Source: Patescibacteria group bacterium
Lineage (GTDB): Bacteria > Patescibacteriota > Minisyncoccia > Phycocordibacterales > UBA12445
Assembly: GCA_003504275.1 (NCBI GenBank)
Contig: DOAO01000006.1
Location: 1,496-62,069, forward strand
Length of the DNA: 60,574 bases
Reading direction: 5' to 3'
Position numbers and translations under genes: made by a program. Of the stretch, positions 22,930 to 33,527 are shown in pieces (positions within the stretch are counted from its first letter, which is position 1; the number at the start of each line of letters is the position of its first letter). The notes beneath the pieces were generated by a model, which did not search any database, had not been told where the DNA came from, and saw only the letters and a program-made list of their open reading frames with translations.

Positions 22930-23439
22930 AGTGGGGCGGCTCGGCCACGAGTTACTAAGTCTACTCATGTTGCTTCGCCTGCCTACGCAGGCGGGCAACA
23001 TTGCGTGGACTAAGTACTCTCGGCCCCAGCTCGTTTGTTCCTCGCTCCACTCGGAACATGACTGCGCTTTTCGGGGCGGCTCGGTCACAAGTTACTAAGC
23101 TTTTTAAAAAATGAGGGCTCGGCCACGAGTTACTAAGTCTACTCATGTTGCTTCGCAACATTGCGTGGACTAAGTACTCTCGGCCCCAGCTCGTCTGTTC
23201 CTCGCTCTGCTCGGAACATGACTGCGCTTTTCGGGGCGGCTCGGTCACTAATCTAAATGAGGGCTCGGTCACGAATAAATTTGCTGACGCAAATTTTTCT
23301 CGACCCCAGCTCGCCATTTTTGCCTTTGCTTCGCAAAACAAAAATAAGGCTGCGCTTTTCGAGCCCGCACGAAAGCCAAGCAGTTGGCTTTCTCCCTCGG
23401 CACCAATAAAAAAGACGCACTATAAAGTGCGCTTTTTTC
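22930..23439 (-). repeat. tRNA-anchored cassette array of tRNA-Phe (three units)
   Basis: 160-nt period (23061 vs 23221). Antisense tRNA copy at 23358-23405 with a 25-nt hairpin insert. Repeated GTGACC/GTGGCC+GAGCC. Confidence 0.85.
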
Positions 23440-23515
23440 TGGTGCCGAGGGGCGGGCTCGAACCGCCGACCCCATCCTCTTCAGGGATATGCTCTACCAA
23501 CTGAGCTACCTCGGC
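23440..23515 (-). tRNA. tRNA-Phe(GAA)
   Basis: GCCGAGG/CCTCGGC, TATCC-CTGAAGA-GGATG, encoded CCA. Confidence 0.96.
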
Positions 23516-23567
23516 ATAATTTCTGTGTAGTATAAATCTACCAGAAATTATATAAAAATCAATATTA

Positions 23568-23855
23568 TTAGAGATTAAGCGTTTTTTTAACCTGATTCAG
23601 CATTTCAGGGGAGACATTGATATCTTTTATACCATTAGCACCGCCTTGAACCCCGGACATTATACTTTGATACGATTGTAATGCTGTATCTATATAGGGT
23701 TGTAGGTAGTAATAAGATCCAACCACCGAACCAATAATTAAGAAATAATAAACAAAATTAAAAAAACTATTCCATCTCTGAGAACTTCTCATTCCCCTAA
23801 GAATCTTATTATTTTCTTTTGTTAGTTCAAGTATTTCCTTTAGTTCTCCTTCCAT
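23568..23855 (-). CDS. Hypothetical single-TM protein
   Basis: 95 aa with one hydrophobic helix. Abuts the hsp20 stop codon. Confidence 0.7.
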   Translation of the reverse strand: MEGELKEILELTKENNKILRGMRSSQRWNSFFNFVYYFLIIGSVVGSYYYLQPYIDTALQSYQSIMSGVQGGANGIKDINVSPEMLNQVKKTLNL

Positions 23856-24313
23856 TAGATTGATTTTATTTTGAGACTCTTGGTTTTGTCTTTTGCTATT
23901 TTAGGCAACTTGATTGTTAGTAGTCCGTGTTTTTCTATTGCTTCTGCGTTATCAGCATCAACTTCGGCTGGTAGCATCATTGTTCTCGTAAAAGAACCCC
24001 AATATAGCTCTCTGGCAAAGAAATCTTTTTCACTTATTTCATGTTGCATACTCCTGGAACCTTTTAACGTAATCATATCTCTCCCTATAGACACCTGTAA
24101 ATCTTCAGGTTTTACTCCAGCCACCATGGTTCTGATAATAATATCTGTCGGGGTCTGGTACATGTCTATCGCAAGTTCCGCTTCGTCGTCTTGTTTTGTG
24201 GCAATTATTTTTTCTTCTTCCAAAAAATCTATAGATTCATCTATTTCTATTTTGTTTCTGGCGTCTGCACTACCTGTTAATCTCTCAAAAAAAGATGATT
24301 TCGTATTTTTCAT
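23855..24313 (-). CDS. Small heat-shock protein Hsp20
   Basis: LAIDMYQT, VAGVKPEDL, RELYWGSFTR, GLLTIKLPK. Confidence 0.9.
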   Translation of the reverse strand: MKNTKSSFFERLTGSADARNKIEIDESIDFLEEEKIIATKQDDEAELAIDMYQTPTDIIIRTMVAGVKPEDLQVSIGRDMITLKGSRSMQHEISEKDFFARELYWGSFTRTMMLPAEVDADNAEAIEKHGLLTIKLPKIAKDKTKSLKIKSI

Positions 24314-24316
24314 AGA

Positions 24317-24462
24317 TTTACCCGGTTAAATAAAATTGACTGATAATATTTTTTTAGATTATTTAAAATATTTATTGTTTATTTTAGTATAAATATTTTT
24401 TAATTCACTTTAGTCAATTTTAATTTTTTATATTTTAAAAAAATTATATTTAACCGGGTGAA
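24317..24462 (-). repeat. AT-rich element with terminal inverted repeats (TTCACCC...GGGTAAA family)
   Basis: TTTACCCGGTTAAATA (24317-24332) pairs with TATTTAACCGGGTGAA (24447-24462) with one mismatch. A nested AAAATTGACT/AGTCAATTTT pair is also present. Confidence 0.75.
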
Positions 24463-25146
24463 TTATTTTTTTAAACTTTTAACCTTCTCACACAAAACTA
24501 GCAACGCGATGGTCAACATCCAGAGAATGGAGAAAACTAAAAAGATATTTTCACCACTACCTTTAATTATAAAAATATTAAAGAGACTATGCAATACGGT
24601 GGCTGTGAGTAAACCCAAAATAACAGCTATTTTCCTGTGTGTTTTGTCTTTATAAAAATTCAATGCAATGAATGAACCGATTGTGGCAGAAGTAAGCAGA
24701 TGAAGTAGTGTTGCGCCAATGAATCTCATGTTTGCTGTAATGAGTGATAATACAGAAAAAGTTGGTTTTACTAAAAAGAAGAAATTTTCAGCAGCCGCAA
24801 AACCGAGGGCAGCTGTTATGAGATAGATTATTGCATCGATTGGTTCATCAAAGTATTTAGTACGAAGTGCGATAAAATAAGCAGTAAGGTATTTTGCTAT
24901 TTCCTCGGTAAACGGCCAGACGAATATTAGTAAATATTCGTAGTCTATATTTCCTGTGACCGCTTGTTGTGCTATATAGGTAGGGAACACAGAAAACATA
25001 CCCGCAAGGAAGGTGGCAAGAATAATTCCACGTGGTTCAGGGCTTCTTTTATCTTCACGTAACCAAAACCATAACCAGAACAATGCCGGTAAAATACCCG
25101 CGAGCAGAGACCAAAAAACGTTGTCGGCTGTTATACTTCCGGCCAT
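24463..25146 (-). CDS. PrsW-family intramembrane metalloprotease
   Basis: PEP, TEEIAK, ALGFAAAEN, ATLLH, LHSLFN. Confidence 0.9.
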   Translation of the reverse strand: MAGSITADNVFWSLLAGILPALFWLWFWLREDKRSPEPRGIILATFLAGMFSVFPTYIAQQAVTGNIDYEYLLIFVWPFTEEIAKYLTAYFIALRTKYFDEPIDAIIYLITAALGFAAAENFFFLVKPTFSVLSLITANMRFIGATLLHLLTSATIGSFIALNFYKDKTHRKIAVILGLLTATVLHSLFNIFIIKGSGENIFLVFSILWMLTIALLVLCEKVKSLKK

Positions 25147-32272: not shown

Positions 32273-32282
32273 GATAATATTT

Positions 32283-32312
32283 AAAAAAACACCGCGCGAG
32301 GCGGTGTTTTTT
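32283..32312. terminator. Bidirectional intrinsic terminator
   Basis: A-tract ACACCGC-gcgag-GCGGTGT T-tract between convergent genes. Confidence 0.7.
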
Positions 32313-32325
32313 AATAGTTAGAAAA

Positions 32326-32535
32326 TTAAAGCAGAGCAACAGAATATACGGAAAGGGCAAAAGCTATCGTGAAAAACATTGCTCCCCAGAAGCACTTTGA
32401 CCAGAAAATGCTACCGCCTTCGGGGTTGCAGGTTGAGCATTTATTTTTAATTTCAAGATAGACATTATACCAGGCAAACAATACCCCAGAGAGCAAGACA
32501 CCTGTTAAAATATATAAAACAGTACTCAGTTCCAT
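32326..32535 (-). CDS. Small two-TM protein with CxxC (VKOR-like fragment)
   Basis: TM-KNKCSTC...SKCFWG-TM. Confidence 0.55.
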   Translation of the reverse strand: MELSTVLYILTGVLLSGVLFAWYNVYLEIKNKCSTCNPEGGSIFWSKCFWGAMFFTIAFALSVYSVALL

Positions 32536-32609
32536 TTTTATTTGAATTAAATGATAAACGACTTATCGATATTATAACAGAAATTTTGGGGAGAATTTAC
32601 TGTGTATGT

Positions 32610-33296
32610 TTATTTAATGTTTCCAATATTGTTGAATATATTATCAATGTCGTTTTTATTCCAGCCACCACCCGACATTAATTCCTGTTCAATTTGTTCT
32701 TTAGAAAATCTCTCTGATTGTCTTTTTAAAATAAAATCGTTCAATTCGTTATTTGGACCAGGTAGAATAGTTTTATATTTATTTATTCTAAAATAAATAA
32801 ATCTTAAAATTATTAAGAATATTAAAATAAAGCTACCATCAAGCAGGAAAAGTCGTAATGGTACAACCTTAGTACCATAACCAGTAAACATTGGAGGAAG
32901 TGCTATGGCGCTGAAAATAATTGTATAAGATGGCAACACGAATAACATTAAGGCCGATGACATAGCAACGGTAAATACCCACATTCTTATTTTATCATTT
33001 GCGATTATGGATAGGGTTTCCTTCTTCAGTATAATCTCAAGGAATGTAACATGTTTTTGGGTTAGGTCTATTTTTTCGGGGTTTCTGTGTGATATTTTTT
33101 TATATACGTAAAGAGAAATAAAAAAATCTAGCAAAATAACCACCTGAATTAAAAGTGCATTATATAACTCATCTGAACCAGGACCAATTAATGGAAAACC
33201 TACCGAGCCCAAGACTAATACCACAGAAGGAATAAATATTATTGTACAGAGAACAAAAATACTTAAAAATCCTAAAAAGTTTAATATTTTTTGCAT
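32610..33296 (-). CDS. Hypothetical membrane protein
   Basis: Several TM helices, C-terminal EQIEQEL..GGWNKNDIDNIF. Confidence 0.7.
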   Translation of the reverse strand: MQKILNFLGFLSIFVLCTIIFIPSVVLVLGSVGFPLIGPGSDELYNALLIQVVILLDFFISLYVYKKISHRNPEKIDLTQKHVTFLEIILKKETLSIIANDKIRMWVFTVAMSSALMLFVLPSYTIIFSAIALPPMFTGYGTKVVPLRLFLLDGSFILIFLIILRFIYFRINKYKTILPGPNNELNDFILKRQSERFSKEQIEQELMSGGGWNKNDIDNIFNNIGNIK

Positions 33297-33373
33297 CTTT
33301 AAATTTTAACATCATTTGTTTTGTAAACAAAATAAAATCACCGAATGCCTTCGCACCCGGTTTATTTATTTTA

Positions 33374-33527
33374 TGACCCTACAGAGTTCGGTCACAGCTC
33401 TCGCTCCGCTCGGTCGCGACCCCGACTCGCATCCTCGTTCCACTCGGATATGCTCCGTCTTTCGATTCTCTGGCGTAAGCAAAGAAGTTTGCTTACTTAT
33501 GGTCAAAAATACGCTTCGCTTAATTTT
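33374..33527 (-). repeat. tRNA-anchored cassette of tRNA-Glu
   Basis: Antisense copy at 33461-33505 with a 25-nt insert. Core AGACGGAG...CGAGTCGGGGTCG...GTGACC+GAACTCTGTAGGGTCA. Confidence 0.85.

Follow-up and report, generated by a model that had tools for sequence, protein, structure and literature searches.

Here, we analysed a 60.6-kb stretch of DNA (60,574 nucleotides; positions 1,496 to 62,069 of the forward strand of contig DOAO01000006.1, assembly GCA_003504275.1; hereafter, the window) from a Patescibacteria group bacterium, in which a 25-nucleotide (nt) hairpin recurs beside tRNA genes. This hairpin is a standard but optional part of gene-less cassettes that lie behind tRNA genes across the ultra-small Candidate Phyla Radiation (CPR) bacteria. 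We propose, with a probability that we put at roughly 0.45, that a cassette family devoid of open reading frames (ORFs) has the 25-mer as its conserved hairpin module, and that these cassettes act as DNA-level fold-back sites in which the hairpin arm marks or positions the recombination machinery.

A degenerate 25-mer pattern scanned across the window yielded exactly 3 exact matches, all on the plus strand, in the cassettes of tRNA-Phe (23369-23393), tRNA-Val (30718-30742), and tRNA-Glu (33473-33497), compared with no match in 100 shuffled versions even with up to 3 mismatches tolerated. Each copy consists of a linker (AC in the Phe copy), a 9-bp stem, a 4-nt loop (GCAG in Phe, GAAG in Glu), and a 3′ T, and the stem changes among the 3 copies are compensatory (A-T/T-A in pair 2 and A-T/C-G in pair 7). 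The respective tRNA genes, identified with ARAGORN and Rfam, are located on the minus strand, 31-48 nt past each hairpin: tRNA-Phe(GAA) at 23440-23515, tRNA-Val(GAC) at 30778-30852, and tRNA-Glu(TTC) at 33527-33600. Directly before the hairpin stands the sense sequence of the T-loop and the 3′ strand of the T-stem of the same tRNA (arm A1, plus strand: TTCGAGCCCGC in Phe, 23358-23368; TTCGAGTCCTGG in Val, 30706-30717; TTCGATTCTCTG in Glu, 33461-33472), and directly after it comes the 3′ strand of the acceptor stem (arm A2, plus strand: CCCTCGGCACCA in Phe, 23394-23405, including CCA and matching the tRNA at 12 of 12 positions; CATGCGCA in Val, 30743-30750; TATGGTCA in Glu, 33498-33505, matching at 7 of 8). 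The hairpin is inserted between positions 65 and 66 of the tRNA copy in Val and Glu and between positions 64 and 65 in Phe. Cassettes accompany 5 of the 7 tRNAs of the window; those of tRNA-Arg (22713-22918, minus strand) and tRNA-Ser(GGA) (an array at 9344-9735, minus strand) belong to the same family and include the same inverted copy without the hairpin, and tRNA-Gly and tRNA-Ser(CGA) lack a cassette altogether. An initial annotation of this window had reported the 3 hairpins, their compensatory stem changes, the interruption of the copy at or within 1 nt of position 65/66, and the lack of the hairpin in the Ser and Arg copies, all of which are borne out by the present analysis. It had also described the host segments as antisense tRNA copies. 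These extend only from position 54 to the 3′ end rather than over the whole molecule, and what was termed antisense is a sense-sequence copy on the opposite strand, i.e., an inverted repeat of the last 20-24 nt of the gene across a terminator-like hairpin.

The layout extends far beyond this genome. Scanning species-representative genomes with the pattern CGWAAGCNAAGNAGTTNGCTTWC identified at least 117 loci (designated here by L numbers), nearly all of them in Patescibacteria and a few in bins labelled otherwise; the matches listed include Paceibacteria, Saccharibacteria, Nomurabacteria, Kaiserbacteria, Moranbacteria, and Kerfeldbacteria. Among these listed matches, 76 of 123 hairpins have a convergent tRNA gene of one of 18 isotypes within 150 nt; in 57 of the 76 (15 isotypes), the hairpin splits the tRNA copy at 65/66, and in 11 (6 isotypes), referred to as class B, it lies 5-9 nt beyond the tRNA 3′ end. 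Furthermore, the 11 nt that precede the hairpin have an inverted match (at least 9 of 11 positions) within 160 nt downstream in 89 of the 118 testable hairpins among the matches listed, compared with 3 of 118 for a control 11-mer, a distribution far removed from the random scatter, without any link to tRNA copies, with which the initial annotation had contrasted its proposal. The hosts also include the transfer-messenger RNA (tmRNA) gene (L067, 5038-5660) and the 3′ end of rplE, which encodes ribosomal protein uL5 (L022, L046, L074, L094), and in both the inverted copy matches the end of the respective gene. In 80 related loci that were collected via a neighbouring protein, and hence are unbiased for the hairpin, 22 of 180 tRNAs are associated with a cassette (one of these is an apparent false positive), and about two thirds of the cassettes contain the hairpin at 65/66.

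Read along the hairpin strand, a cassette unit starts with a remnant of the tRNA tail in gene orientation, which ends in the T-loop at ...TCG and is followed by a sharp start, often GGTCAC, and by hairpin P1. Next come the core GACCCC-NN-CTCG, hairpin P2, and CTCCG-N′N′, and the unit is completed by the 12-nt copy of T54-65, the 25-nt hairpin, the acceptor copy, and a terminator-like hairpin, with the tRNA gene beyond it on the other strand. The core dinucleotides NN and N′N′ covary (GA/TC, GC/GC, AG/CT, GG/CC, AC/GT, GT/AC, and AA/TT). The cassettes are about 110-190 bp long, and no ORF was found among the open reading frames of the window that would fall within them. At the apex between the inverted arms, many have a bidirectional terminator-like hairpin, as in the Phe cassette (23406-23439), where it is terminator-like on both strands. 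In the window, the body of the proximal Phe cassette (23267-23357, plus strand), aligned with 51 relatives, consists of GGTCAC, hairpin P1, core GACCCCAGCTCG, hairpin P2, and CTGCGCTT, and that of the Glu cassette (33390-33460, plus strand) runs from GGTCAC through GACCCCGACTCG to CTCCGTCT. Truncation and loss of the palindrome mark the older units in the arrays of Phe, Arg, and Ser, and those of Phe (22930-23266, plus strand) have lost the hairpin as well.

The Val cassette has a second type of body (CTACGCGAACAGTATAGG ... GGAGAACC; 30634-30705, plus strand), which is also present in L010, L016, and L102. In this body type (L009, L010, L016, L060, L076, L111, and others), the hairpin GAANC-TTACA-GNTTC directly follows the T-loop remnant, then comes AGTAC, and the same 25-nt hairpin is found farther along. 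The motif CCTTACAGGAGCGGTACACC, which opens this body type after T-loops in other genomes, also begins an insert of ~100 nt at the anticodon loop of another, incomplete tRNA-Glu copy, which lies upstream of the real gene (33627-33812); the D-arm of this partial copy contains a 34-nt palindrome. In the arrays of L084 (about 2760-2910), L107, and L121, the oldest unit ends exactly at or within the hairpin, truncations that may result from palindrome instability or from breakage at the junction.

From the shared insertion point, the initial annotation had suggested that placement is guided by structure or reflects selection. Placement is certainly non-random, as the recurrence of the 65/66 position across 15 isotypes attests, but the position is not read from the tRNA structure. 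Among the 52 cassettes that have the canonical core, the distance from CTCCG to the start of the hairpin is 15 nt in 37 and 16 nt in 11 (together 48 of 52), and this spacing is the same whether the intervening 12 nt represent T54-65 or, as in class B, the last bases of the tRNA plus its trailer. Indeed, slot and spacing are constant across several body types and both insertion classes. Thus, the architecture of the cassette, rather than the shape of the tRNA, sets the place of the hairpin, and the 65/66 position arises because homology starts at T54 in most cassettes and the cassette architecture is fixed. Of the 12 paired nucleotides of class B, 7 belong to arbitrary trailer and are still complementary between the arms, so that the property that is kept is pairing in cis and not the match to a tRNA.

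The hairpin itself is under evident constraint. Among 36 distinct versions, all 9 pairs have changed on both sides while 99.1% of the cells remain paired; double changes account for 95 cells, compared with 21 ± 5 in shuffles, and in slid-register controls, pairing falls to 30-48%. Positions G12, A14, G15, and T25, i.e., the G-N-A-G loop and the 3′ T, are invariant, C2 and C13 are nearly so, and the same slot can be taken by variants with quite different stems. In L118, a close relative in which the neighbouring 745-aa protein is 91% identical, the orthologous tRNA-Phe cassette has CGCAAGGCGC-GCAG-GCGCCTTGC in this slot, which amounts to 4 compensated pairs, and its arms are still identical to the tRNA. 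Judging by this covariation, the hairpin is a real, structurally constrained element. The spread of the canonical 22-mer appears to have been recent and horizontal, as suggested by its near-identical presence in very distant CPR lineages despite the freedom of the stem to vary.

These features of the hairpin have to be set against the possibility that a selfish palindrome, similar to repetitive extragenic palindromic (REP) elements, landed in an ancestral cassette and has since been carried along without a role. Small, clean palindromic inserts do exist in this genome, e.g., the 18-nt palindrome at 22978-22995 (the CTGCCTACGCAGGCGGGC region), which is inserted in Phe unit 1 and absent from the near-identical unit 2; moreover, the 25-nt hairpin is optional, and for a small number of copies (L034, L057, L093), no surrounding cassette can be recognised. 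Nevertheless, the nine covarying pairs, the invariant loop and linkers, the constancy of slot and spacing across body types and the two insertion classes, the confinement of all 3 copies in 60 kb to cassettes, and the lack of a GTAG or CGTC tag make such a passenger very improbable. It is this tag at the hairpin foot that characterizes REP elements served by REP-associated tyrosine transposases (RAYTs; PMC3733652). The cassette hairpin resembles REPs, the bacterial interspersed mosaic elements (BIMEs) composed of them, and their IS200/IS605-type RAYT system in being a short hairpin with a 4-nt loop, unpaired tails, putative folding as DNA, and a variable target-matching segment at the foot. 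It differs in that 4 nt match the target in REPs and 12 nt plus 8 nt do so here, in that it is not independently dispersed, and in that no RAYT was seen. Membership in the REP/RAYT group was rejected: the foot reads (A)CG-N..., and 75% of the copies elsewhere, among the matches listed, are in an inverted-repeat context.

A further suggestion of the initial annotation, that the hairpin would form a three-way junction when the copy is paired to the tRNA 3′ end, agrees with single-strand folding, in which the same minimum-energy three-way junction is predicted at all 3 sites of the window and on either strand, with energies of -25 to -52 kcal/mol and z-scores of -8.6 to -14. The predicted fold consists of a 12-bp helix between the copy and the gene (T-loop and T-stem), 2 unpaired bases, the 9-bp hairpin, 1 unpaired base, and a third helix, in which the acceptor pairing is capped by the terminator hairpin. 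In the Phe cassette, arm A1 would pair with 23452-23462 to form helix 1, the 3′ part of the tRNA gene contributing the other strand of helices 1 and 3. On this model, the three-way junction is the expected fold if one strand spans both arms. The role in protein binding or cleavage that the initial annotation attached to this junction is a candidate one.

Having no ORF, being sporadically present, and being bounded by a direct repeat of the tail that is cut in the T-loop, the cassettes look like insertions in the 3′ part of tRNA genes. At tRNA-Glu, a 13-nt direct repeat of the tail is found at the far end of the cassette (TGACCCTACAGAG TTC, 33374-33389, plus strand, which ends in the T-loop and forms the distal boundary), and at tRNA-Arg, the displaced copy behind the gene is the intact native 3′ end (ATTCCTGTTGGAGGCAC). 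The acceptor part of the displaced copy has decayed in Phe, Val, and Ser of the window and in Gly of L118. Across 52 cassettes of other genomes, the most frequent end point of the direct repeat is TCG (22 of 52), which lies 2 nt inward of the 12-bp helix base and about 9-10 bp from the hairpin junction. A clean pair of empty and filled sites is provided by tRNA-Gly(CCC), which in the window (22237-22330) directly abuts the RNHCP gene and in L118 (8290-8548) is separated from it by a hairpin-less cassette of 190 bp. This pair, together with the occupancy of 22 in 180 tRNAs, indicates that cassettes come and go. The source metagenomes yielded only fragmented contigs over the Phe/Arg region and no informative variants.

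Several other observations concern the insertion boundary and the order of the tRNA genes. In one subfamily (L003, L027, L028, L031, L084, L092, L095, and L104, and also L032, L060, L070, L091, L097, and L105), the copied T-loop reads TTCTCAT or TTCTCGT as opposed to TTCGAAT in the tRNA, so that 2 nt are consistently mismatched near the 12-bp helix base, close to the apparent crossover. When the window (22930-23855) is compared with L118 (6900-7960), a segment that includes a 95-aa ORF, tRNA-Phe, and the cassette is inverted relative to L118-L121, in which tRNA-Phe is co-oriented with tRNA-Arg and tRNA-Gly; the inversion point in the window is where the Arg and Phe arrays abut. Just upstream of the Val cassette body, GTAGGCGACACAGGACTC (30616-30633) is the antisense of an L118-type tRNA-Val tail (acceptor GTCGCC) and does not fit the tRNA-Val now present in the window (CATGCGC). 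Because the two tRNA-Val(GAC) genes differ over their full length, it seems that either the tRNA-Val gene was replaced or cassettes were shuffled between genes.

How could such elements move? In the scenario that we favour, a cassette supplies a new tail for the tRNA, which reaches from T-loop to 3′ end, the terminator-like hairpin, the inverted copy of the tail, and the conserved folded core, and ends at the sharp boundary, often ...TCG followed by GGTCAC, beside the remains of the displaced tail. A single strand would then fold back, such that the inverted copy pairs with the gene's own tail and recreates the duplex tail of the target, with the 25-mer protruding as the third arm of the junction, about 12 bp from the helix base and about 9-10 bp from the end of the homology with the displaced copy. 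In integron attC sites and in the attP site of CTXphi, a folded single strand recreates a duplex recombination site, and the fold of the cassettes would be used at the DNA level in the same manner. The hairpin, with its G-N-A-G loop and flanking C and T, would be the only feature that tells apart the two arms and the two strands, thereby breaking the symmetry of the palindrome, and, one helical turn away from the apparent crossover, it could mark or position a trans-acting recombinase or nuclease that is not encoded in the cassette. Both the mobility via single-stranded fold-back and the role of the hairpin in recognition or positioning are what we infer from comparison of the sequences.

Three groups of known elements are instructive in this regard. 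Williams reportedly distinguished, in 2002, T-loop and 3′-end sublocations for integrative elements that reside in tRNA and tmRNA genes. Similarly to such elements, including tyrosine-integrase islands, prophages, and integrase-less cis-mobilisable derivatives, the cassettes insert into the 3′ part of tRNA and tmRNA genes, restore the tail, have a direct repeat of the tail at the far boundary, form arrays, and are present or absent between relatives. Unlike them, the cassettes are only 110-190 bp long, encode neither an integrase nor any other ORF, hit nearly every isotype, and contain, in addition, the target tail in inverted copy as well as a folded core and a hairpin that are both conserved. 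With integron cassettes, of which the attC bottom strand is the substrate of IntI, they share small size, an imperfect palindrome at the boundary, and arrays that grow at one docking site. In attC, the palindrome has to fold as a single strand, and extrahelical features break its symmetry and choose the strand; for the cassettes, a fold of this kind with a one-sided hairpin arm is predicted. By contrast, there are no GTTRRRY R/L boxes in the sequences read, IntI is not found nearby, and protein cargo is missing; docking takes place at the T-loop of a tRNA, and the asymmetry would reside in a whole 9-bp hairpin rather than in single extrahelical bases. Finally, CTXphi-type integrative mobile elements exploiting Xer (IMEX), which combine their attP with dif and rely on the host XerCD enzyme, have two inverted target-like copies in a forked hairpin that mimics the duplex target and leave older copies stranded in arrays, and the cassettes, which have no enzyme of their own, can be likened to them on all these counts. 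The differences are that the target of the cassettes is the 3′ end of tRNA, tmRNA, or rplE rather than dif, that no Xer sites were recognised, and that the cassettes are 100 times smaller and not phages.

One argument for placing this fold at the level of DNA is the pattern of mismatches. RNA helices accept G-U pairs and do not accept A-C. With all mismatches treated alike and under a stricter count than a crude tally (15 A-C versus 4 G-T) that a conserved internal loop had inflated, the stems of the cassettes contain 8 G-T versus 11 A-C mismatches, compared with 220 G-U versus 18 A-C for 359 tRNAs of these loci in their acceptor and T stems (Fisher p = 2e-7). Thus, having no G-U excess, the cassette stems are unlike helices selected on one transcribed strand. 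Sigma-70-like promoters are not in excess ahead of the units, and the bidirectional terminator at the apex of many cassettes would prevent a single transcript from spanning both arms. No window cassettes were found in RNA runs; the SOLiD metatranscriptomes from the same sample contained none of the sampled words, and nothing was found in HK-STAS.

Several points weigh against a fold-back site used at the DNA level. The wobble comparison is low in power, mismatches of any kind being rare, and within the hairpin itself, G-U (5 cells) slightly exceeds A-C (about 2). In 90 of 119 units, the tRNA-sense strand of the body folds about 4 kcal/mol better, an asymmetry that could reflect an RNA made from that strand or merely G-richness and base composition. 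Contigs from four wastewater libraries labelled RNA-Seq cover the tmRNA-linked cassette of L067 at tmRNA-like depth. In the same libraries, protein-coding neighbours have similar depth, so that the libraries may contain DNA, and the contig ends are de Bruijn branch points; for these two reasons, the libraries are informative neither on RNA ends nor on transcription, which may occur. Furthermore, neither an excised circle, nor a single-stranded form, nor a recombinase has been seen, and mobility is deduced from comparative anatomy alone. Cassettes without the hairpin (Arg and Ser here, Val and Gly in L118) are apparently equally successful, which implies that the hairpin is accessory and not essential to the basic mechanism. 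Lastly, the predicted fold provides duplex on one side of the crossover only, and a classical tyrosine recombinase would have to bind on either side.

In other explanations, the folded molecule is an RNA. One of them holds that an RNA of the tRNA strand, produced by read-through or from its own start, carries an antisense tail that folds on the 3′ half of the tRNA or on the displaced tail copy, yielding a tRNA-like or RNase-sensitive three-way junction, with the hairpin at the point from which the D and anticodon arms extend out of the acceptor/T helix, and serves as a processing, decoy, or quality-control signal. The better folding of the tRNA-sense strand of the bodies and the formation of the same predicted junction on that strand fit this explanation, as do the cassettes without a terminator between the arms (L003, L019, L036) and one wastewater contig from a library labelled RNA-Seq that runs from tmRNA through the terminator into the antisense arm. 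However, in most cassettes, the tRNA is immediately followed by a good terminator, the wobble signature is missing, pairing with the 3′ half of the tRNA would compete with folding of the tRNA, and the decay of the acceptor part of the displaced copy in Phe, Val, Ser, and the Gly of L118 means that the closing tRNA-like helix is not maintained. Taken together, we consider an RNA of this kind quite improbable.

Alternatively, the cassette could be a small-RNA gene convergent to the tRNA, in which the hairpin is a protein handle between guides of 12 nt and 8-12 nt, and the RNA leads an unlinked recombinase or nuclease to the tRNA gene, in the manner of CRISPR RNAs (crRNAs), omega RNAs, and bridge RNAs. 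The presence, between two structured modules that are conserved, of a segment that varies but keeps its length, the invariant loop with its fully covarying stem, the persistence of a copy identical to the tRNA despite drift elsewhere in the cassette (seen when the window is compared with L118), the termination of many cassettes on this strand, and the occurrence of cassette sequence in libraries labelled RNA-Seq all accord with it. The counterarguments are that the 12 nt of class B mostly match the trailer of the cassette itself rather than a naive tRNA gene, that both segments are in the same sense, unlike the guides of bridge RNA and tigRNA, which address opposite strands, that promoter signal, G-U excess, and a linked protein are all missing, and that the libraries in question cover protein-coding neighbours similarly and may contain DNA. 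Weighing these points, we rate a convergent small RNA as unlikely, if by no means negligible.

A related and more far-reaching idea, which we regard as rather improbable, is that the cassette is a programmable target reader: the target copies of 12 nt and 8-12 nt, located on either side of the hairpin handle and next to the core, would be recognised, in the form of RNA or of folded single-stranded DNA, by an unlinked, CPR-wide enzyme that inserts the cassette at the match. If true, this would represent a minimal form of nucleic-acid-guided integration, for which a change of about 20 nt would suffice to switch targets, and it could account for the occurrence of a single family behind nearly every tRNA isotype, tmRNA, and rplE. 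In the bridge RNA of IS110 elements, the left and right guides address opposite strands, and the gene for the DEDD recombinase is adjacent. The split of a target-matching sequence by a structured element is a feature that the cassettes share with the IS110 bridge RNA and with the tigRNA of TIGR systems. The cassettes were nonetheless excluded from the IS110 bridge RNA group, given that both halves are in the same tRNA sense and no recombinase ORF is adjacent. TIGR-Tas arrays consist of alternating 8-12-nt repeats and 9-nt spacers, with the Tas gene adjacent (PMC12045711); the repeat and spacer sizes of the cassettes do not fit, and we found neither such an array nor a linked Tas gene, so that membership in this group was rejected as well.

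The search for a dedicated enzyme in the vicinity of the cassettes gave a negative result. Clustering of the ORFs within about 4 kb of the cassettes in the at least 117 loci revealed no enriched protein family, only housekeeping families and one helix-turn-helix (HTH) protein, and the 10 window ORFs compared with Pfam are all housekeeping. The HTH protein, which has about 220 aa, its HTH at the N-terminus, and the motif LYWGEG, occurs near tRNA genes in 8 of 117 loci among the matches listed (L005, L030, L038, L059, L068, L079, L096, and L116); Pfam detects only its HTH. Rfam, at both gathering and E-value thresholds, recognised only tRNA and tmRNA, and in a literature search that included the hairpin sequence as a query, no published description of the hairpin or of the cassette layout was found.

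If the fold-back reading is correct, CPR bacteria would harbour very abundant, protein-less cassettes that rebuild the tails of tRNA genes and fold into a conserved junction. The hairpin would be the best-defined handle on these elements, given that it is short, that its loop does not vary, and that its distance from the apparent crossover is fixed, and could serve both as bait for the enzyme and as a marker for cataloguing the family. For genome annotation, GC-rich, hairpin-dense stretches that contain partial tRNA copies are easily mistaken for pseudo-tRNAs, small RNAs, or terminators. Whether the junction acts as folded DNA or as RNA bears, ultimately, on how DNA may move in genomes with minimal sets of repair and recombination genes.

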